A DNA stretch of 49,761 nt from Minisyncoccota bacterium (GTDB taxonomy: Bacteria > Patescibacteriota > Minisyncoccia > UBA6257 > 2-01-FULL-56-20). The DNA lies in the NCBI GenBank assembly GCA_031291905.1, contig JARLIC010000137.1:1-49761 (forward strand). The letters run 5' to 3'. Below the pieces are notes generated by a model that did no database searches, was not told where the DNA came from, and saw only the letters and a list, made by a program, of their open reading frames with translations. Positions 1,463-49,277 of the stretch are shown one piece after another. Within the stretch, counting starts at the first letter, position 1. Every line of letters begins with the position of its first letter. Made by a program: the position numbers and the translations under genes.

Positions 1463-1993
1463 ATGCTAATCATGGAAACCGCGTCAGAAGTCAAATTGCA
1501 CGTCCGGTGGATGATCAAAGCGGATCTTGCGAGCGTCCTCGGAATCGAATCCAAAAGCTTCGACCGCCCTTGGTGCGAGGAGGATTTCTGCGACAGGCTT
1601 AGGTTCCGCAACGCCATCGGCATGGTCGTCGATCGAAACGGGACTGTCTGCGGCTACATGATCTATATGTTGGATCGCGGCAAGATCGTCGTTGAAAAGC
1701 TTGCCGTTCATCCTGATTTCCGACGCCAGAACGTTGGCAAGAAGATGGTCGACAAGTTGAAGTCGAAGCTCAACGAGAACCGGCGGCGGAAACTGGAGCT
1801 TTTGGTCCGCGAAACGAGCGTCGGGGCTCAGCTCTTCTTTAAAGAGATGGGATTTCGAGCCATCGAAGTGATTCGCGGGCATTTTGAGGACGAGGGCGTG
1901 GACGCTTACCTCATGTGCCACGAACTCGCGGATACGTTTTCCGCCGCGCCAGATGGGGAGATGCCGAGAAATCGAATCCGGATCTACCTGTAG
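1463..1993 (+). CDS. rimI: RimI-like GNAT N-acetyltransferase
   Basis: HVRWMIKADL..IE..SF..PW.EEDF, AVHPDFRRQNVG (acetyl-CoA motif A), VRETSVGAQLFFKEMGF, DAYLM. Start is 1463 or 1472. Confidence 0.85.
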   Translation: MLIMETASEVKLHVRWMIKADLASVLGIESKSFDRPWCEEDFCDRLRFRNAIGMVVDRNGTVCGYMIYMLDRGKIVVEKLAVHPDFRRQNVGKKMVDKLKSKLNENRRRKLELLVRETSVGAQLFFKEMGFRAIEVIRGHFEDEGVDAYLMCHELADTFSAAPDGEMPRNRIRIYL

Positions 1994-2007
1994 AGGTCGA
2001 CGCAACC

Positions 2008-2148
2008 ATGAAACGCACCTTGAGACGGACCACGCTGAGATTGATTTGCATCGCGGCTATGGGTTGCGAGATCGTCATCGCCGCAATGCCGACGTTGGCG
2101 GGATGTGGGTTGGCTTACTTATTTGCGAGAATGTTTACCGGGAGGTGA
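2008..2148 (+). CDS. Small hydrophobic/membrane protein
   Basis: ATG 2008 after GAGG; two hydrophobic stretches. Confidence 0.5.
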   Translation: MKRTLRRTTLRLICIAAMGCEIVIAAMPTLAGCGLAYLFARMFTGR

Positions 2149-2153
2149 TCTGA

Positions 2154-2354
2154 ATGAGCGAGAATCATGAAACCTGTCCAAATCCGAAGTGCAAGTCGGC
2201 CGATCTTTCGATCGCCAAAAGCATGCAGACCACGCAAAAACGCGTGCTTTGCCGAGGCTGCTTGATGACGGGGCCGATGTCGACCGACGAAGTCGAAGCG
2301 TGGGAAGCATGGGACGCGTTGCCGCGCGAATCGAAGGAGGCCGCCCGTGGGTGA
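2154..2354 (+). CDS. Lar-like (restriction alleviation) zinc-finger protein
   Basis: CPNPKC...CRGC..GP......A.EAWD; GGAGG RBS. Confidence 0.6.
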   Translation: MSENHETCPNPKCKSADLSIAKSMQTTQKRVLCRGCLMTGPMSTDEVEAWEAWDALPRESKEAARG

Positions 2355-2709
2355 TGCGAAGCTGGAGCAGATCCAAGAAGGCCTTGGTGAGCTGCTGATG
2401 GCTTGCTCAGGAAAGGGCTGGGTCAAGTCGTGCCGTTTTATCATGGCCGCCCGCGAACTCATCGAGCGCCAGGCCGCCGAGCTGAAGGAGAAGGCCGCCA
2501 TCATCGAGCGGCTGACGCCCAAGCCGATGGACTTAGCCGAAGCGGCGAGGCTGCTCCGAATCAATGAGCACGAGGGTCGCGTCGACTGGGGCGTGGACTC
2601 GGGCATGATGTCCGTTCACAGCTTCGGGGGCGGTTTTATTATCAAAACAAGGTTCGCAATTGCGATCGCCCGAGAATACGAACGCGAGAAGGAGGCCGCC
2701 CGTGGCTGA
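2347..2709 (+). CDS. Modular hypothetical protein (ERL-joint family, H-type C-module)
   Basis: GTG start coupled to the upstream stop; IERLTPK joint; DLAEAARLL..HEG..W..AIAIAREY. Confidence 0.8.
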   Translation: MGDAKLEQIQEGLGELLMACSGKGWVKSCRFIMAARELIERQAAELKEKAAIIERLTPKPMDLAEAARLLRINEHEGRVDWGVDSGMMSVHSFGGGFIIKTRFAIAIAREYEREKEAARG

Positions 2710-3067
2710 CGCAGCTGACTACCCGCTTGAGCTTGGCTATATCGCTGGAGCAATGCGGCGCAAGATAGGTTGGCCTGGCGAAGCCGGAATCCTCGTTGAA
2801 GCCGCCAATCACATCAAGACACTCACAGCCGACAACGGCCGCCTCGCAGCCGAGGTCGAGCGGCTGAAGCGAAAGATGACTCGGGACGAGGCGATCGAGA
2901 TTCTCAACAGTCACGAGTACCAGGGCTTTACTCAGTGGGAGAACACGCACCTCCTGGGAGGCGAAGCGGTCGAGTTCGAGCTGTTCGCCGTCGCCCACTG
3001 GCTCGAAATCACAAAAGGAGCCGGCCCGATCCCGCCGCCGATCGAGAAGGAGGCCGTCCGTGGTTGA
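2702..3067 (+). CDS. Modular hypothetical protein (ERL-joint family)
   Basis: N-module IAGAMRRKIGWP shared with 32960; VERLKRK joint; AGPIPPPIEKEAVRG tail. Confidence 0.8.
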   Translation: MADAADYPLELGYIAGAMRRKIGWPGEAGILVEAANHIKTLTADNGRLAAEVERLKRKMTRDEAIEILNSHEYQGFTQWENTHLLGGEAVEFELFAVAHWLEITKGAGPIPPPIEKEAVRG

Positions 3068-3434
3068 CGCGAAAGAGATTGTCGCAGGGCTCCGAAACAT
3101 CGTCTCCGATTACAACTGCGGAGACAAAGTAATTACCACGGACAAGGCGAGGGTGATCCGCGACGCCGCATTTGAGGTCGAGCGGCTGACGCTGCGGTGG
3201 TCGAGCGAGCCGCCGAAGGTGATGGGCACATTCTGGGTGCGGTTCTCCAACCCAGAATTTCGCTCGATTCGAGGTCCGTGGACGATGACGGCGGATTCCG
3301 AATATCTCGCCCTCGCGATCGACGACGAGATCCCGAGCAACTGCGAGTTCGCCGGCCCGATCGCGGCGCCGCTGGAGCCGGACGCGGCGGCATTACGTGA
3401 GGCTGAAGGACTGAAGGAGGGCGAACGTGGCTGA
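3060..3434 (+). CDS. Modular hypothetical protein (ERL-joint family, different C-module)
   Basis: VERLT joint; WSSEPP...EFAGPIAAPLEPDA tail. Confidence 0.8.
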   Translation: MVDAKEIVAGLRNIVSDYNCGDKVITTDKARVIRDAAFEVERLTLRWSSEPPKVMGTFWVRFSNPEFRSIRGPWTMTADSEYLALAIDDEIPSNCEFAGPIAAPLEPDAAALREAEGLKEGERG

Positions 3435-3828
3435 TGACGCGAAGACACTGGCGGACCTGAAGAAAATCAGGTCCGAAATGGGCTACGACTCGTGGGGCGA
3501 AAGCTGGGACGGAACCATGGCCGATGCCATAGCCCTCATTAAACGTCAAGCCGCCGACAACGCCCGCCTCGTCGCCGAGATCGAGCGGCTGACGCCGAAG
3601 GAGATGACGCTGAACGAAGTGGCGAGAGTGCTGACCGTGCATCGCCACCGAGACCTCACATGGCGAGCCTATGGGAGTGGAGTCGAAGGGACCAATAAAT
3701 TCGTACTCGTTAATTTCAACGGCCTTGAAGCCAGGGCTATTGCCAACGAATACGCCCGACGTGACGCCGGCCCGATCGCGGCACCGCTGGAGCCGGACGC
3801 GACGGCAAGCCGGAAAGAGAGTGAGTGA
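3427..3828 (+). CDS. Modular hypothetical protein (ERL-joint family, H-type C-module)
   Basis: ADNARLVAEIERLTPKEM; AGPIAAPLEPDA tail. Confidence 0.8.
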   Translation: MADDAKTLADLKKIRSEMGYDSWGESWDGTMADAIALIKRQAADNARLVAEIERLTPKEMTLNEVARVLTVHRHRDLTWRAYGSGVEGTNKFVLVNFNGLEARAIANEYARRDAGPIAAPLEPDATASRKESE

Positions 3829-4049
3829 TGCTGCTAGTCATCAACATGACGGGGCTCGATCGAACCTACTGGACGCCAGAGTTCGAGCGTCGATCGGACG
3901 GCGATGGCCTCTGGTACGCGACAGCGAAGTGGCTGTGCGTCGAAGTCACGATCCATAGCCGCGAGATGGGCGCGGAGGTGGTGAGGAGATTCAACGCATC
4001 GATAGCGAAGCCGCTGGAGCCGGACGCGGCGGGGAAGGGGGAGAGATGA
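3825..4049 (+). CDS. Hypothetical protein with PLEPDAA tail
   Basis: Coupled start/stop; shares the tail repeat. Confidence 0.7.
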   Translation: MMLLVINMTGLDRTYWTPEFERRSDGDGLWYATAKWLCVEVTIHSREMGAEVVRRFNASIAKPLEPDAAGKGER

Positions 4050-4264
4050 GCACGCCAAAGCGGAAAACGCTGAAGCGTCCCACTGGTGTCAGCGATACAG
4101 CCGAAGCCTACATCCTCTGGGTCGACGTCAAAGGGATGGGCGTGCGACTGAAAGTCCAAGGCGGCATGGGCGTCGGGCTACGCCGCGACAACCCAGCGTT
4201 ACACGAAGTCATCGGGGAAGCGATCTGTCGCGAATTCGATATCGACTTGGAGGCCACATTATGA
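4046..4264 (+). CDS. Hypothetical protein
   Basis: ATGA coupling at both ends. Confidence 0.7.
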   Translation: MSTPKRKTLKRPTGVSDTAEAYILWVDVKGMGVRLKVQGGMGVGLRRDNPALHEVIGEAICREFDIDLEATL

Positions 4265-5178
4265 CGACCGCGAAGCTTAAATCACTCTGCCTGCAACAGC
4301 ACGAGGTGCGGGCGTTGCTGAAGGACGGGCGAGTGACGGTGGTGCGGGCGATGAAGCCGCAACCGCCAGCGTGGGTTGAGAAGATCGTCATCGAAGCGGA
4401 CGCCCCAAGCGGGCGTTGGTCTGGCCAAGGCCGCAACGTCTACGGGCGGGAGATGCATTGGCCAGGAGAGACGTATCTCCGCTGCCCTCTCGGCGAAGTC
4501 GGGGACAAGCTGGCGGTGAAGGAGTCGTTCTGGGTGAAGCACGACACGGACAGCGACGACTACAGAGAATGGGATTGCGGACCATGTCTTGATGTCGGAC
4601 CTGAGTTCCATCCTGGGATTCAGTACCGTGCGAGCCCCGAGGCGAGGAATCCGCCTGAAGGCGTCGCGCCTCATCCCGTCGATGAGCCAGGCGATTGGTG
4701 GGAAGGACCGCCTGATGATTGGGACGGCGAGTCCGACTATCACGGAAAGGGCCAGTGGGAGTTCCTCCCCTGGGGTCTATACAGCAAGTTTTCGCCAGTT
4801 CTGCTGCCGGCTTGGGCCTCCCGCTTCACGGTCGAGGTCGAGGCCGTGCGGGGCAAGCAGGTGCAGTCGATTACCGAGGACGAGGCGAAGGCTTCGGGGC
4901 TTGAGATTCAGATTGGCGACGGCACCGGAAACGGGCCTGGCTACAAGTGGGACGGCCCCGCGTACTGGGATGGGCATTCGATGCATTCGATCCACGGAGG
5001 CAAGACCTACCATGCCACCAGTCCTCGCGGAACTTGCTACTGCCACAACGGCGAAAGGGACGGATTGACGGCCGCGCGATGCGCCTTCAAGCACCGTTGG
5101 GGTAAAGCCAACGGTCCCGACGCATGGGATCGCAACCCCTGGGTATGGCTCGGCGAGATTCGGAGGGTCGAGACGTGA
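4261..5178 (+). CDS. ASCH/PUA-like phage protein
   Basis: VRALLKDGRVTVVR...CPLGEVGDKLAVKES...LPAWASRFTVEV..VR...VQSITEDEAKASG...WDRNPWVW. Confidence 0.7.
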   Translation: MTTAKLKSLCLQQHEVRALLKDGRVTVVRAMKPQPPAWVEKIVIEADAPSGRWSGQGRNVYGREMHWPGETYLRCPLGEVGDKLAVKESFWVKHDTDSDDYREWDCGPCLDVGPEFHPGIQYRASPEARNPPEGVAPHPVDEPGDWWEGPPDDWDGESDYHGKGQWEFLPWGLYSKFSPVLLPAWASRFTVEVEAVRGKQVQSITEDEAKASGLEIQIGDGTGNGPGYKWDGPAYWDGHSMHSIHGGKTYHATSPRGTCYCHNGERDGLTAARCAFKHRWGKANGPDAWDRNPWVWLGEIRRVET

Positions 5179-5345
5179 ATCACTGGTGGGAGCGTTGCAG
5201 GCTTCCCGATCCGGTCTGCATGGTCTGCGGAAAGGATTGCGAGATAACCGAGGTCGTCGACATCGGCGGTGAGAAAGAGCTTTGGTGTTACTGCCCGAAG
5301 TGCGACGCCGAGACCTTTCATCCATTGATAAAGTCGACCGACTAA
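5175..5345 (+). CDS. Small zinc-ribbon protein
   Basis: GTG 5175 overlapping the upstream stop; CMVC...CPKC. Confidence 0.65.
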   Translation: MNHWWERCRLPDPVCMVCGKDCEITEVVDIGGEKELWCYCPKCDAETFHPLIKSTD

Positions 5346-5449
5346 TCGCGGGAGTTAGGCATGACGCTGCTTACCATCATCCCCGTCGCCAGAGGTCCGG
5401 TGCGGCGGGGCGTGCGGCAGTGGCTCGGCGAGATGCGGAGGTTTGAAGG

Positions 5450-5722
5450 ATGAAAACTCTTGAACTGCGTCCTGTGTACGTCGAATTCGTTCCAGACGAT
5501 CCAACCGAAGGCGTGCTCTACATCTCAGAGGAATACCAAACGGCGATTCACAAATGCCCGTGCGGATGCGGGAGCGAAGTCGTGACGCCGCTGTCCGGCG
5601 AGCATGCGTGGCAGCTTACCGGATCGGCCGACGCTGTCACGCTGAGGCCGTCTGTCGGCAATTGGAACTGCCTGTGTCAGTCCCACTACTACGTCACGGC
5701 GAACAAAGTGGAGTGGCTTTAA
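5450..5722 (+). CDS. DUF6527-like protein
   Basis: AIHKCPCGCG..VVTPL...W.L...TLRPSVGNW...CQSHYYV...VEW. Confidence 0.7.
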   Translation: MKTLELRPVYVEFVPDDPTEGVLYISEEYQTAIHKCPCGCGSEVVTPLSGEHAWQLTGSADAVTLRPSVGNWNCLCQSHYYVTANKVEWL

Positions 5723-29662: not shown

Positions 29663-30067
29663 ATGAAATTCACCATGTACTACAGGACGAGCCCTGGGGC
29701 CAACAAGACTAACGCCCGCGAAGGCGAATTCAACAGCATGGAAGACGCCAGGGCGATGGCCCTGAAAGCGATCAAGGCGAAGTATCCCGATGGCGTGTTG
29801 CTCAACGTGGTCGAGTCGTCGCAGGCTGTTGAGCTGGTCGACTTGGACCGGGTCTTTAGCTTCTATTACAGGAAGGACACGCGGGGCGAGGTTAGCATCG
29901 GCCGGGCGGTTGGCGACAGCAAGGATGAAGCCGCCAAGGAAGCGACTAAAGCTGTCAAGACCGCCTATCCCGCTGGCTCTGTCTTGAAGGTCTTCTTGGC
30001 CAAGAACTCGCCGACGCTGGCCAAGAACGCACATGGCGTTGAGTGTGCCCCATCGCTGGTCTACTGA
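29663..30067 (+). CDS. Hypothetical protein with internal two-fold repeat
   Basis: F..YYR...S...A...A.KA.K..YP.G..L.V occurs twice. Confidence 0.75.
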   Translation: MKFTMYYRTSPGANKTNAREGEFNSMEDARAMALKAIKAKYPDGVLLNVVESSQAVELVDLDRVFSFYYRKDTRGEVSIGRAVGDSKDEAAKEATKAVKTAYPAGSVLKVFLAKNSPTLAKNAHGVECAPSLVY

Positions 30068-30078
30068 GGGGAAATGCA

Positions 30079-30618
30079 ATGTCGCTTGATTTGGAACAAG
30101 CCGCCGACATCCTGAGACGCAATCGATATCTCGGGATAGGAGACTGGTCGTACGATGGGTGCAGCGTCGTGGCGGAGGGCGTAGGCGTGCTATTTGACAG
30201 CCACGCGATCAAAAGGGCTAACGGCTATCTTGGAAGCGATCCCGAGTATCTGGCGAGCCTGGGAGGCGTGCCCGTGCTGAATGAGGAGGTTGAGAGCAGT
30301 CCGCATGGACAAGGACTTGTTGACAGCCTTGAACGGCTCAAGATGTTCCTTATCGAGAAGCACGAGTTTGACCATGCGGCAACGATAGTTAAAGCCAAAA
30401 ACTGCGCCAAGAACGTCATCGCTGAGTCAAAGGCTTCCGCCATCCCTTCCGCCGACGAAGCCCTGGCGATCATCAATGAGAACAACCACAACGGGCTCAA
30501 GTACAAGTTGTTCGTATCTAACGCCGGAACCACAGATCCCAGGAATGCCGCTTATGTTCTGCCTTATGAGGAGTTCATCGGCACCGCAATGTTCTACAAA
30601 GCCAAGAAAGCCAACTGA
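30079..30618 (+). CDS. Hypothetical protein with two H-type modules
   Basis: LDLEQAADILRRNRYLGIGDW and SADEALAIINENNHNGLKY resemble the C-modules of 2347, 2702 and 3427. Confidence 0.7.
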   Translation: MSLDLEQAADILRRNRYLGIGDWSYDGCSVVAEGVGVLFDSHAIKRANGYLGSDPEYLASLGGVPVLNEEVESSPHGQGLVDSLERLKMFLIEKHEFDHAATIVKAKNCAKNVIAESKASAIPSADEALAIINENNHNGLKYKLFVSNAGTTDPRNAAYVLPYEEFIGTAMFYKAKKAN

Positions 30619-32959: not shown

Positions 32960-33277
32960 ATGGGGGCCACTGTGAACGAGAACATCAATTACGCAGCCGA
33001 GCTTCGCATGATCGCTGGAGCCTTGAGACGCAAGATTCAATGGCCGGAAGAAGCGGATATCCTCGAAGCCGCCGCTGCCGAGATCGAACGGCTGAAGCCC
33101 AAGGATCTGAGCGACCAAGAGATCGCCAACACATTAAACAATATAGAGCATGGCAATGTAGACGACTGGCGTCCCCATTTCGGCAATTTCAGCAGCAAGA
33201 ATCTTTATTGCTCGATCGATCGAATCGTTGCCAAAGCTATCGCCGAGAAACACTGGCGAGAGAAGAATACGTCATGA
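32960..33277 (+). CDS. Modular hypothetical protein (ERL-joint family)
   Basis: IAGALRRKIQWPEEADIL (like 2702), EIERLKPK joint, H-type C-module. Confidence 0.8.
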   Translation: MGATVNENINYAAELRMIAGALRRKIQWPEEADILEAAAAEIERLKPKDLSDQEIANTLNNIEHGNVDDWRPHFGNFSSKNLYCSIDRIVAKAIAEKHWREKNTS

Positions 33278-36992: not shown

Positions 36993-37021
36993 TTGATTGA
37001 CGCAGGCGGCCGGATTACCAT
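36993..37021 (+). promoter_or_regulatory. Possible integrase promoter
   Basis: TTGATT-17 bp-TACCAT. Confidence 0.45.
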
Positions 37022-37052
37022 CATCCCTCACCGAAAACCAGGGGAGGGAGCC

Positions 37053-38363
37053 ATGCCTGCGAAGTTCCTGATGTCGTGGATGCCGCGCGAGAGGCGATGG
37101 AAGAAGATGCATCGCGGGAAGGTCTACGTCGTCTCCTGTCGCCACCTCGGAACTCCGGAGACCAAAGAGGGCTCATGGAAGGAAGCGAACGAGTGGTGGG
37201 CGGCGACGAAGGCTGAAGCCGAAAAGCCGGCGGAGGATGGCCGCGTCACAAAGGCCGTGGCGATGGCCAGGGCGGTCCGAGGGTTCGAGGACCTGGACGA
37301 CGAGGGCCGGAGACAAGTCCTCGATTCCATCCTTGGCGGCGGTTCGTATCAGAGGCTTCTCGCTCAAAGCGATGCGACCACGAGCGGGGCCAAGGCCCTT
37401 CAGTCCGATCGATCCATTGAGGCTCATGTCGAAACGTGGCGAAGCCTCTTGCTCTCCGCCTGCGAGTCCGGGCAGATCAGCGCGGGGCGCTACGAAGCCT
37501 ACCTCGCGAACGTCGCCAAATTCGTCCAATGGATCGGACCCAAAGCCCTGATCGATTCGATCGACGAATCCAAGATCGAGAAGTTTTACGCGATCCTGTC
37601 GGCGAAGGTCGCCGAAGGAGCCTACGCGCCTTCGACGGCCCACGGGATCTTCATGACTGCGAAGCAGTTCATCCGGTGGATGGCCGAGAAGAAGCTGATC
37701 CAACTCCCAGGAAACATCGACTCGCGACGCCTGCGATTCAACCAAGGCCAAGCCTCGAAGATCGAGACGTTCACGATCGACGAGATCAGGGCGATCCTAG
37801 CGGCGTGCGACGAGTTCTCAGAGAAGGTCAAACTCTACGTCCTCCTAATGCTTGGGGGAGGCATGTATCAAATGGACATAGCCGAACTGAAGCAGGACGA
37901 AGTCGACTGGGAGAATGGGCTAATCACGCGAGCCAGGACCAAGACGCGGAATCAGGGTGGACCCGTCGTCACGTATAAATTATGGAAGGAAACCTTCTCG
38001 CTGCTCAAGAAGTACCGAAACAAAAAAAGTCCCCTCGTCCTGACGACAGGAGAGGGGAATCCGTTGGCACGGCGGTGGGTCGAATCAGGGAAGACGAAGC
38101 GATACGACTTGATCGGATCAGCCTGGGAGCGACTGGCCAAGCGGATGGGGATGGCCAAGCATCGCCTTGGAATGAAGCATCTGAGGAAGACGGGAGCGTC
38201 GATCTTGGCCGAGCATCCGCAGTATAAATACTATGCCGGAATTTACCTCGCACATGCGCCCCAGAGCGTCGGAGATAAGTCATACGTCGTCCCGAGCGAG
38301 TCTGAGTTCGCCGAAGCTTTGGATTGGTTGCGGGTGCAGGTCCTTGGGCCTGAAGGGGGCTAG
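37053..38363 (+). CDS. int: Tyrosine recombinase / phage integrase
   Basis: Arm-binding-like N-terminus, core-binding helices, RTKT (K), HLRKT, LAHA, C-terminal SY; GGGAG RBS. Confidence 0.85.
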   Translation: MPAKFLMSWMPRERRWKKMHRGKVYVVSCRHLGTPETKEGSWKEANEWWAATKAEAEKPAEDGRVTKAVAMARAVRGFEDLDDEGRRQVLDSILGGGSYQRLLAQSDATTSGAKALQSDRSIEAHVETWRSLLLSACESGQISAGRYEAYLANVAKFVQWIGPKALIDSIDESKIEKFYAILSAKVAEGAYAPSTAHGIFMTAKQFIRWMAEKKLIQLPGNIDSRRLRFNQGQASKIETFTIDEIRAILAACDEFSEKVKLYVLLMLGGGMYQMDIAELKQDEVDWENGLITRARTKTRNQGGPVVTYKLWKETFSLLKKYRNKKSPLVLTTGEGNPLARRWVESGKTKRYDLIGSAWERLAKRMGMAKHRLGMKHLRKTGASILAEHPQYKYYAGIYLAHAPQSVGDKSYVVPSESEFAEALDWLRVQVLGPEGG

Positions 38364-47465: not shown

Positions 47466-48374
47466 TCAACCCCGCGACCCCGGCTCATCCGGGAACTCTT
47501 CCTGAACCAACGGCTTCACCGGCTGCTTGACCTGATTCGCGGCGGCCTGTTTGGCTTTGACATCCGCAAGCGTAGCGTTGAGGTTCTGAGCTTTGACGCT
47601 GACGACGACTTGCACGGGGAAGATGTCGTACAACTGAGCTTCGCCATTCTCGATAGACTGATTCCATCCGATCATAGTGATGACGTGCTCCTCCGTGATC
47701 TCCTCGCGTCCGTTCACTCCAAGGGCCTGATAGACGTGCTCGGCGGGGATCGCCTTGCCTCGCCAGAAGTCAAGCCATTCGCCTCGCTCCACGTCGATAG
47801 CCTTGAGGCTTCCCTTGATGACCTGGCGAACTTGCTCGTACGCTCCGTCCCAGAAAGCTCGCGGGACGACCTTGAAGATCGCATTGCGAGTCGCCTTGGA
47901 GATCGCCGCGTTCGCCGTCATGTTGATCATGTCGGCGTTGTACTTCTTGCCGTACTTGTCGATGATTCCGACGCGAAGTTCAACAGCCACGCGATTGTTC
48001 CGCTGGAGGTCGATGCACTCGCCCATCACGACCACGACCTTGTCGTCTTCGTCGATCACGCGGCCCTGAACGCTGATATTGCCCCAGCATGAGGCCAGGA
48101 TTTCAGCGAACCGAGCGGACGGCCCTTCGATCGTCTTGCCCCCGCGAGGCAGGGCGTAGATGCAAGACTTCGCGATCTCTTTGGTCAATCCAGCCATCGT
48201 CTTGACCTCGTCGACCGCCCTCCGCAGGTTGCGAGGGAACGCCCGAGCCGTCGCGATCTGACTGTCGATCGTGGCCTTGACCAACGCATATGAAGCGTTC
48301 GGCGTCGATACTTCGATGGACGATTCGTTTTCCATGATCTCGCCGCCGCGACCTTCGTACGAAACAATCGACAT
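47466..48374 (-). CDS. Putative single-strand annealing/recombination protein
   Basis: IATARAFPRN...YALPRGGKTIEGPSARFAE...WGNI; adjacent to the YqaJ exonuclease. Confidence 0.55.
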   Translation of the reverse strand: MSIVSYEGRGGEIMENESSIEVSTPNASYALVKATIDSQIATARAFPRNLRRAVDEVKTMAGLTKEIAKSCIYALPRGGKTIEGPSARFAEILASCWGNISVQGRVIDEDDKVVVVMGECIDLQRNNRVAVELRVGIIDKYGKKYNADMINMTANAAISKATRNAIFKVVPRAFWDGAYEQVRQVIKGSLKAIDVERGEWLDFWRGKAIPAEHVYQALGVNGREEITEEHVITMIGWNQSIENGEAQLYDIFPVQVVVSVKAQNLNATLADVKAKQAAANQVKQPVKPLVQEEFPDEPGSRG

Positions 48375-48377
48375 CTG

Positions 48378-49277
48378 TTAGCTTCTCCTAGGGGTACGGA
48401 AAGAAAGGTTGATTCGCCTGTGCGCTTTTCTGACTGACACGCTTTCCGCAATGTCGCTGACGCTGCACTTGATGATCCGACCGTCGGGAAGCACGCCCGA
48501 CGACACGCCGCAGAGAGCGTCGATGATGCTGGCTTTGCGTTCGTCCTTCTGAGCTTCAAGGAAGCCGATCGACTCCTTGATCTCGTTGTACTGATCGACG
48601 ACGGCCTGGATGTCGTCGCCTAGTGCGATCTGACCTTCTTGGACGCCGAAGTGCTTCACGAGGGCTTCGGAGTCGCGAATCCCTAGTGAGAGCGGAGGAG
48701 TCTTGGATTCGACCGAATTCCAAAACTCAGCCTCAACGTCGTTGATCTGGTCGATCAATTCGTTATTGCGTTCGACTGGGTATACGCGAATGTCTTCCAT
48801 CATTCCGACAAACACAGCGAAGATTACGACCTTGCGTTTCGTCACGGCGAGTTGATGTTGTCCCTGGATTTGCCATTCGATCGGCAGGGAATCCACGTCG
48901 CCGTCTTCGCCGAGTTCTCTCGCCTTCTCGTAGCCAACCGACTTGAATTCGGCGATCCGCTCGCCATCGATCAGTCGGTCGAGCGTGGCGAGTTGCCAAG
49001 GCCGATCATCAGACTGGAAGCAAACCTGAGAGCCTATGTAATTGCACCCGATTCGCTCCTGAAGTGCTTCAGCAATGGCTCCTTCAAATCGATGCCCCCA
49101 TTTCATCGGCGGCGACACGAATTTAGGCGGAACGGGCTCGCCAAGTTTTTCCAGCCAGAGACCAATCCGGTTCTGATCCGGGTATGGACTAGCTCCAACG
49201 ACAACCGGCGCGTCTGAACCTCCGATCCCGCCACGTCGCCACGCGAGCCAATCGGTATTCGATAAACTGTCGCTCAT
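48378..49277 (-). CDS. YqaJ-like viral recombinase exonuclease
   Basis: WLAWRRGGIGGSD; WGHRFE; ATLDR; EFKS; QGQHQL. Confidence 0.92.
   Translation of the reverse strand: MSDSLSNTDWLAWRRGGIGGSDAPVVVGASPYPDQNRIGLWLEKLGEPVPPKFVSPPMKWGHRFEGAIAEALQERIGCNYIGSQVCFQSDDRPWQLATLDRLIDGERIAEFKSVGYEKARELGEDGDVDSLPIEWQIQGQHQLAVTKRKVVIFAVFVGMMEDIRVYPVERNNELIDQINDVEAEFWNSVESKTPPLSLGIRDSEALVKHFGVQEGQIALGDDIQAVVDQYNEIKESIGFLEAQKDERKASIIDALCGVSSGVLPDGRIIKCSVSDIAESVSVRKAHRRINLSFRTPRRS

Follow-up and report, generated by a model that had tools for sequence, protein, structure and literature searches.

In the modular genome hypothesis (Susskind and Botstein; lambdoid boundary sequences), short conserved sequences at the borders of modules serve as crossover points. 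In the T4-type internal-protein locus, small, fast-evolving genes have a conserved 5' coding leader and conserved flanks around swapped bodies, and one member counters a restriction system. It has long been debated, without settlement, whether phage mosaics form at conserved 'linker' homologies or whether pieces are joined at random and then selected. For the T-even tail-fiber/gp38 adhesin locus, the account in PMC3157838 (citing Tetart et al. 1998) reports that conserved motifs between hypervariable segments mediate shuffling between phages. A phage exonuclease/annealase pair is described in PMC3945230 as recombining short, diverged homologies, with mosaics flanked by raised identity. Here we analyzed an array of six tandem small genes (g1 to g6 in order) at positions 2154 to 4049 of a 49,761-nucleotide (nt) stretch of DNA, hereafter the window, which is the first part of a 119,133-nt contig (JARLIC010000137.1) in an assembly assigned to a Minisyncoccota bacterium (GCA_031291905.1). 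These genes share three classes of short repeats, termed joints 1, 2 and 3, which an initial annotation of the sequence had taken for the exchange points of a diversification system. The data suggested that the array probably reflects ordinary evolutionary mosaicism inside the genes of a new modular family, and not a programmed or high-rate diversity generator.

The six genes are read from the + strand, and neighboring genes overlap by 8 or 4 nt (GTGnnTGA, GTGA). At four junctions AAGGAGG is followed by six nucleotides and GTG, with TGA in codons 2-3, and at three more there are GTGA/ATGA overlaps; the chain extends past g6 through ATGA to genes at 4046-4264 and 4261-5178. From this arrangement the array genes are predicted to be translationally coupled, and they appear to be tandemly duplicated. 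The presence of six tandem small genes sharing repeats at fixed sites was confirmed, with three repeat classes at the positions claimed in the initial annotation. The sequence between the joints, which had been described as dissimilar, was so at the DNA level, but the products of the genes at 2347, 2702 and 3427 (g2, g3 and g5) were homologous over their full length, with pairwise identities of 29-40%. Mutual E-values of the family genes ranged from 4e-8 to 6e-4 in a whole-genome search (4e-8 and 7e-7 for g2/g3 with g5 as query). Together with g33, the gene at 32960, these three proteins aligned from end to end with 14 invariant columns across both halves. Their N parts, first described as different N-modules, thus represent subtypes of a single helical module and are not unrelated; the different C module claimed for g4 was upheld. 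The family also extended beyond the range first claimed, to 32960-33277, to 30043-30618 and to two genes outside the window on the same contig.

The common plan of the family is a helical hairpin, an ERLTPKPMT linker and a C-domain of ~55 amino acids (aa) with an alpha/beta (alpha-beta3-alpha) fold. Scans of Pfam and PHROGs gave no family for g2-g5. A profile search of 1.84 billion representatives returned 59 proteins at E<=1e-3, four of which were the window's own; most were 100-135 aa long and matched end to end. The array proteins thus belong to an undescribed modular family without a Pfam or PHROG entry. In what follows, database relatives carry P numbers and the contigs or loci examined carry L numbers; L006 and L021 are other phages.

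The modularity of the family was examined in its members and relatives. The C-domain was present in at least seven genes of this ~119-kb phage. Among relatives it was found alone in proteins of 56-87 aa (P0057, P0050 and P0049), in tandem with two, three or more copies per protein (P0037, P0025 and P0059), behind zinc-ribbon N-termini (P0030, P0043, P0046 and P0055), after additional long coiled coils, and in L006 and L021 after a different N part of ~130 aa. Judged from these occurrences, the C-domain is an autonomous unit. Similarity of N and C parts was then compared across 51 proteins with the N-joint-C plan, comprising 46 of the 55 non-self hits and five genes of this phage, with the nine hits that do not follow the plan omitted. 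The two were uncorrelated (Spearman -0.01, 1275 pairs). Among the pairs with an N score of at least 0.5, the C score reached 0.5 in one of nine, and among those with a C score of at least 0.5 the N score did so in one of four, the short N part of P0052 inflating some of its N scores.

Chimeric relationships were also found by BLASTP. The g5 protein was 59% identical to P0006 over residues 1-56 only, with ERL at 53-55, and g33 was 77.5% identical to P0033 over residues 10-49 only. P0019 and P0043, in which the N part is helical and zinc-ribbon, respectively, were 75% identical from just before the joint to the end. P0027 consisted of the N part of P0013 joined to the C part of P0011, and P0032 and P0009 had the C part in common. 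At the protein level, the breakpoints lay at ERL or no more than 4 residues from it. Because the discordance runs in both directions, unequal rates cannot explain it; an exchange of modules took place, and it ended at joint 2. The proposal that half-genes are mixed between relatives with breakpoints at this joint was therefore borne out by the crossover check. Repeats of the C-domain were seen as a separate feature of some relatives: P0059 is a protein of 598 aa with at least four of them, and others have three or two. Among P0059, P0025, P0037 and P0016, one protein has a C-domain that runs into the next N module, and this N module ends directly in a KEAARA tail; such a protein looks like the product of a fusion and a deletion from joint 2 to joint 1.

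Joint 2 is the most conserved protein block of the family, (A)AE(V/I)ERLTP(K/R)(P/E)MT. Its core, CGAGCGGCTGA(C/A)G, was found at 2505, 2857, 3179 and 3582, and a 48-nt stretch was 85% identical between 2828 and 3553. On the structure models described below, joint 2 would form the end of a dimerizing coiled coil (its last heptads) and the inter-domain linker; ERL would lie at the end of the dimer helix and TPKP would break the chain before the C-domain, and there is thus a protein-level reason for its conservation. To separate protein from DNA conservation, codons were compared at identical residues in seven family genes from three phages, with the 12 joint-2 columns set against the rest of the body and the tail. 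Identical codons were used in 135 of 157 cells in joint 2 (58.6 expected from codon usage), in 209 of 438 in the rest of the body (167.2 expected) and in 60 of 102 in the tail (34.2 expected), in genes that are related to one another. In the 12 pairs that match a window gene with a gene of another phage, codon identity was 79/90 in joint 2 and 111/247 in the body. Three sets of disjoint pairs gave 22/22 versus 24/66 (p 2.6e-8), 20/24 versus 32/65 (p 0.003) and 21/25 versus 37/73 (p 0.003) for joint 2 and its flanks. All seven genes used CGG for the Arg and CTG for the Leu of joint 2, codons with an overall usage of 0.26 and 0.28, and conserved Arg and Leu columns outside joint 2 had mixed codons. 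Stronger conservation of synonymous sites in the joints than in the flanks, a test named beforehand, was accordingly found for joint 2 and for the tail and joint 3, and also between phages.

A 9-mer, GGCTGACGC, occurred at 2510, 2704, 3184 and 3587, that is, in three copies of joint 2 and one of joint 1; four matches compared with 0.76 expected, and 2 of 100 shuffles also reached four. The idea raised by this 9-mer, that joint 2 is a fused gene junction, was rejected, since the reading frames do not correspond and the shuffles matched the count. Seven joint segments folded as RNA no better than shuffles (z -0.66 to +1.30) and had no common structure.

Joint 1, AAGGAGGCCGCCCGTGG, was exact at 2334 and 2689 and had one mismatch at 3047 and three at 3414; the expectation for such matches was 0.19, and none of 100 shuffles reached four. 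The cassette consists of AAGGAGG, six bases, GTG and G-N-T-GA-C, and codes for Met-x-Asp of the next gene together with the stop of the upstream gene. With up to three mismatches allowed, the whole 119-kb genome contained one further copy, at 107,216, before another family-type gene. A cassette with a TTG start precedes the family gene at ~106,931-107,236, where the upstream gene is an unrelated DUF5131 gene (Pfam E 1e-62); the DUF5131 protein ends in KETGLE because the cassette lies at the 3' end of its gene. The region of ~105,934-107,603 (L039) therefore holds three genes chained by joint-1 cassettes, namely the DUF5131 gene, the family member with the TTG start and a KEAGRG tail, and a third gene (107,229-107,603) that by eye has an N-type helix followed by a zinc ribbon and matches no Pfam family. 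In L006 the cassette follows both a ribbon-helix-helix-like gene ending in KEAGRA and a family gene ending in QEAARG, and the ending KEAAR[AG] is common to many database relatives. Joint 1 is best read from these sequences as the family's own translation-initiation region together with the MxDAK N-terminus, and the simplest reading of the KEAARG tail is that of a by-product of tandem arrangement, in which the upstream gene reads through joint 1. The initial description of joint 1 as tail, ribosome-binding site and GTG start in one thus stood, but its role as a recombination joint gave way to the simpler one of translation initiation. Conservation of its DNA requires no role in recombination, yet the joint offers 18-20 nt of homology. 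At L006 3331-3393, a joint-1 cassette directly after a family gene starts an open reading frame (ORF) of 20 aa (MADADLTDAAG...), after which the DNA is joint-3-like in a different frame, and the whole has the look of a cassette that lost its body by deletion.

Joint 3 is the proline-rich C-terminal tail (A)GPIA-PLE, which is carried by the family C-domain, by the g4-type domain and by the unrelated g6, and which also follows several C-domain subtypes in other relatives. The 43-nt copies at 3350 and 3765 were 95% identical, and those at 3019 (67%) and 3992 (77%) were weaker. An 18-mer, CCGCTGGAGCCGGACGCG, was exact at 3369, 3784 and 4011 (0.12 expected; 0 of 100 shuffles reached three), and no further copy was found on the whole 119-kb genome. 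The likeness of the g4, g5 and g6 tails in DNA despite their unrelated bodies points to recent copying of the tail between neighbors. The C module of g4 with its EFAGPIA-PLE tail was homologous to P0047 (41% identity, E 9e-15). All exact matches of at least 13 nt between family genes lay within a joint or tail, the longest being 28 nt (g5 and a gene of L006), 26 nt (g2 and L021) and 23 nt (g4 and g6). On the 119-kb genome the joint motifs were confined to family genes. All joint copies were direct repeats on one strand; therefore, exchange within a genome deletes or duplicates genes and makes chimeras, and does not give reversible permutation.

We consider it probable that these genes became mosaic in the ordinary course of evolution. 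On this account, tandem duplication would have produced coupled small genes in an accessory region of the phage. Over evolutionary time, N hairpin subtypes or zinc ribbons, C-domains or other domains, and tails would have been reassorted by recombination, either unequal or between phages, at short conserved in-frame stretches or beside them, and repeated exchange or gene conversion at the joints would keep their DNA alike beyond what the protein sequence demands. We infer that these exchanges rely on the conserved DNA for homology and involve the phage's YqaJ-type system. Several results weigh against this account. The exact tracts at the joints are 13-28 nt long and mostly shorter than the minimal pairing segment of Red-beta, which is quoted as 23-27 bp in PMC3945230, and efficient recombination at the joints was not supported. 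The claimed pair of a YqaJ exonuclease and an annealing protein stood in its first half, by Pfam, while the neighboring gene matched no recognized annealase family. The conserved Ala is encoded by GCC in three body columns too, and codon preference may account for some of the codon signal; the joint-2 proline codon varies at its third position (CCC, CCG, CCT). DNA was available for two distant relatives only (L006 and L021), and the chimeras are seen at the protein level among representatives of 50%-identity clusters. No close variant of g5 appeared in a search of 5.8 billion clusters, and recent events are accordingly not visible. Illegitimate recombination, if followed by selection for chimeras that fold, would likewise place breakpoints at a domain boundary. 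Plain duplication and divergence, with the joints as islands of purifying selection that have no role in recombination and with chimeras produced by unequal rates in the two halves, draws on the single-codon Ala columns and on a protein- or translation-level reason for conserving each joint (ribosome-binding site and start; coiled-coil end and linker; functional tail peptide), and the one fixed arrangement seen in four sequencing runs, in contigs only, agrees with it. However, pairs with alike N and unlike C parts and pairs with alike C and unrelated N parts both occur, including helical versus zinc-ribbon N parts, codon identity in joint 2 is far above that of other columns with identical residues, Arg and Leu elsewhere in the alignment do not keep to one codon, and three genes whose bodies are unrelated carry the joint-3 18-mer without a mismatch. 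We regard this explanation as unlikely.

Stronger versions of the recombination idea were also weighed. It is doubtful that the joints are kept alike in DNA as crossover points, and that a lineage's set of cassettes (N hairpins, C-domains, tails, and ribosome-binding site with start) is reassorted by its own YqaJ-type system, through unequal crossing-over and co-infecting relatives, into a rapid turnover of dimeric, possibly heterodimeric, host-interference or anti-defense proteins without reverse transcriptase. The scheme nearest to the initial annotation, in which selection would keep the joints as sites of recombination and half-genes would be shuffled by the phage recombinase at an appreciable rate, for example for anti-defense proteins, appears very improbable. 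The joints do preserve the frame and are conserved in DNA, natural chimeras exist, a YqaJ exonuclease is encoded, and the genes lie in an accessory region of small genes. Set against this are the direct repeats, by which exchange within a genome cannot permute, the short tracts of identity, the lack of an anti-defense family or fold among those found, and the weak evidence for Lar-likeness. In the contigs of four sequencing runs, all from one study and perhaps the origin of this DNA, a single contig per run covered 1500-5500 with 0 differences, and no joint-to-joint junction was found inside the array, which is weak evidence since contigs drop rare variants. The claim of a working diversification system free of reverse transcriptase was therefore not sustained by this single identical arrangement, within the limit that contigs cannot exclude rare variants. 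Junctions that seemed to go back were rejected as array rearrangements; they reflected a match resembling joint 1 at another place on the long contig itself and a repeat around 5380-5418. Short unrelated contigs matched a 35-nt part of joint 2 or of joint 3, with 3-5 differences, and were unlike the array beyond it; no conclusion was drawn from them. It is very unlikely, finally, that the synonymous sites are conserved because the genes contain a nucleic-acid element, be it a site of protein binding, a site of RNA processing or regulation, or a folded RNA, with module exchange as a side effect. The core GAGCGGCTGA(C/A)G is identical in all family genes examined, also across phages, and the 9-mer is common to joints 1 and 2; the joint segments fold like shuffles, however, the motifs are confined to family genes on this genome, and 2 of 100 shuffles match the 9-mer count.

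The structure and possible role of the proteins were investigated by modeling. AlphaFold2 modeled full-length g5 with a predicted local distance difference test score (pLDDT) of 88.6, with helices at residues 2-17 and 26-55, a linker at 56-61, and then a helix, three strands and a helix; the C-domain alone (3592-3768) gave a pLDDT of 95.6. For residues 1-117 of g5 the homodimer prediction scored 0.65, and the best of three controls scored 0.00. Among proteins of solved structure, 20 of 30 that are pairs of one chain attained this score, as did 1 of 23 that are single chains; these figures are only approximate for the custom alignment used here. Contact agreement among the runs was at least 90%, and the partner pLDDT was at least 83. 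In the predicted interface, a parallel coiled coil runs in register (34:34, 38:38, 41:41, 45:45, 48:48, 52:52 and 55:55) and the last C-domain helix adds contacts (101:101 and 104:104); L55 of ERL is part of this interface. The model supports homodimer binding by g5. Foldseek at E<=0.001 gave no match in the PDB for the full or the C-domain model, nor for the full model in a viral library. VIA searches gave nothing clearly above background, the best Z being 6.2 with the full model, on its helical hairpin, and 4.6 with the C-domain model; values of Z under 8 can reflect a common arrangement. The C-domain match was to the anti-CRISPR AcrIC4 (57 aa; root-mean-square deviation 3.0, 56 of 57 residues aligned) and was tied with the unrelated kinesin MBS domain; this likeness, as modeled, is a lead within background. 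For g4, the ESM Atlas returned unnamed clusters only, with scores of 0.87 or less. The most likely role would be that of early or accessory proteins that act as dimers and use their variable C-domains to bind targets of host or phage origin.

The first gene of the array had been labeled Lar-like. The Lar (PF14354) motif consists of a four-Cys zinc ribbon and then an A-x-x-A-W type helix, and the g1 sequence CPNPKC...CRGC...EAWEAW fits such a pattern. The label was not supported by the searches: g1 matched phrog_599 at E 0.06, had no Pfam hit at E<=1, below what the PF14354 threshold demands, and matched the Lar-like end of P0047 by BLASTP at E 0.25. The proposed anti-defense role depended on this label and received no support from folds or families.

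The contig carrying the window has an exact 141-nt terminal overlap, which gives a circular assembly of ~118,992 nt. It encodes large and small terminase, portal, major head protein, head-tail adaptor and a tape-measure-like protein, and also DnaB, helicases, a clamp loader, RuvC, methyltransferases, an integrase and the YqaJ exonuclease. Given this structural and replication gene set on a circular contig, its sequence is that of a complete tailed-phage genome. It was binned with a 0.95-Mb genome, of which it makes up ~12%, and is probably a phage of the binned organism or a binning passenger. The array protein family had no copy on any other contig of the bin, and none of 100 relatives of the host bin carried a member. 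A search of a viral collection for relatives with DNA yielded one contig (L006). A motif scan of metagenome contigs yielded 25 loci, with a full-length relative in L021 only, one marginal match of 36 residues (E 8e-4) in L009 and none in the 23 others; among genome contigs, 40 pattern matches included no family relative. The word-based protein search of the 5.8 billion clusters with g5 as query returned g5 alone, on 5 contigs, the longest of 119,133 nt.

The array lies in a long + strand stretch of small genes without assigned function, which is taken as an accessory region. The gene after it, at 4261-5178, matched phrog_874 (E 4e-25), and two relatives of it lie beside the family genes of L006 (4069-4878 and 6055-6735), and the neighborhood is therefore partly conserved between distant phages. 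Antisense ORFs at 2115-2606, 2642-3100 and 3133-3648 (- strand, 152-171 aa) were rejected as genes and attributed to high G+C, the + strand frames having relatives and confident folds; a naive gene call based on length favors these antisense ORFs over the real array genes. Elsewhere on the contig, the large terminase ORF (L041, 15318-17864, - strand) is 849 aa long and its first ~300 residues match primase-like or other terminase-associated PHROGs; it may be a fusion, or its start may have been called too far upstream. The coordinates of the features are collected in Table 1.

Table 1. Genes and joint copies of the array, dispersed family members and recombination genes in the window (SD, Shine-Dalgarno sequence; HMM, hidden Markov model; TIR, translation-initiation region)
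Feature	Position	Strand	Remarks
g1	2154..2354	+	66-aa four-Cys zinc-ribbon protein; ends KEAARG, then stop
g2	2347..2709	+	Family member: helical hairpin, ERLTPKP linker and C-domain; tail KEAARG, then stop
g3	2702..3067	+	Family member; N subtype as in 32960 and P0033; tail AGPIPPPIEKEAVRG, then stop
g4	3060..3434	+	Short N helix, ERLTLRW, different C module and AGPIAAPLEPDA tail
g5	3427..3828	+	Family member, used for structure models; AGPIAAPLEPDA tail
g6	3825..4049	+	Unrelated 74-aa protein with IAKPLEPDA tail; phrog_34000 E 6e-4
Joint 1, copy 1	2330..2357	+	SD AAGGAGG, 6 nt and GTG; upstream TGA within codons 2-3 of the next gene
Joint 1, copy 2	2685..2712	+	Repeat comparison
Joint 1, copy 3	3043..3070	+	1 mismatch in 17-mer
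Joint 1, copy 4	3410..3437	+	3 mismatches in 17-mer
Joint 2 in g2	2496..2531	+	AIIERLTPKPM
Joint 2 in g3	2828..2875	+	ADNGRLAAEVERLKRK; 85% identical to 3553-3600
Joint 2 in g4	3150..3197	+	FEVERLTLRW
Joint 2 in g5	3553..3600	+	ADNARLVAEIERLTPK; 28-nt stretch exact in a gene of another phage (L006)
Joint 3, weak copy in g3	3019..3061	+	AGPIPPPIE, 67%
Joint 3 in g4	3350..3392	+	AGPIAAPLEPDAAA
Joint 3 in g5	3765..3807	+	95% identical to 3350-3392
Joint 3, partial copy in g6	3992..4034	+	23 nt exact with g4
g33, dispersed family member	32960..33277	+	Short N; without joint 1 or joint 3 DNA; different TIR
Two-C-domain protein	30043..30618	+	191 aa; C-domain clear once (HMM E 4e-4); at the end another C-domain-like stretch, by eye only
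YqaJ neighbor, candidate annealing protein	47466..48374	-	phrog_3657 (function not known) E 5e-47; no Pfam hit
YqaJ/RecE-like exonuclease	48378..49277	-	PF09588 E 3e-23; phrog_434 E 3e-56

A keyword search of the open-access literature returned no description of tandem small-gene arrays of this kind. For the debate on linkers and random joining, the family is a compact test case, with intragenic frame-preserving joints, measurable synonymous conservation, chimeras that break at a joint and a confidently modeled two-module plan, and its practical weight will stay modest until a role for it is established. Compared with lambdoid boundary sequences, which are mostly intergenic, two of the three joints here lie inside coding sequence and keep the frame, and the one joint of the intergenic type, joint 1, is better explained by translation than by the boundary-sequence idea. 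Unlike the T4-type internal-protein locus, the array shows no evident capsid-targeting leader or protease site, and its N part is a predicted dimerizing hairpin. Diversity-generating retroelements, shufflons and integron cassettes resemble the array in having combinatorial or sequence diversity in a defined repeat-bearing locus. In contrast to a diversity-generating retroelement, however, the array has short motifs and no pair of template and variable repeats (a reverse transcriptase was not searched for). It differs from a shufflon in that its repeats are direct and not inverted, its joints are not palindromic and no recombinase gene adjoins it, the only integrase match being at 36993-38363, ~33 kb away.

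The exonuclease-based systems and the T-even adhesin locus are the closest in kind. Relaxed homologous recombination with Rad52-like recombinases, as outlined in PMC3945230, involves an encoded exonuclease, as in this phage, where it is of the YqaJ type. The assayed regions given in that source span 300-3353 bp, with longest perfect stretches of 11-298 bp, and the joints here have 13-28 nt of exact identity; relative to the systems it presents, the exchange in this phage is intragenic and the annealase is a candidate only. The T-even adhesin locus, as summarized in PMC3157838, is like the array in that short, strictly conserved in-frame motifs separate variable modules. The adhesins of that summary are virion host-range proteins whose recombinants were recovered experimentally, whereas the array consists of small non-structural tandem paralogs known from sequence comparison, and in the array, unlike the adhesin locus, one of the joints is a translation-initiation cassette.

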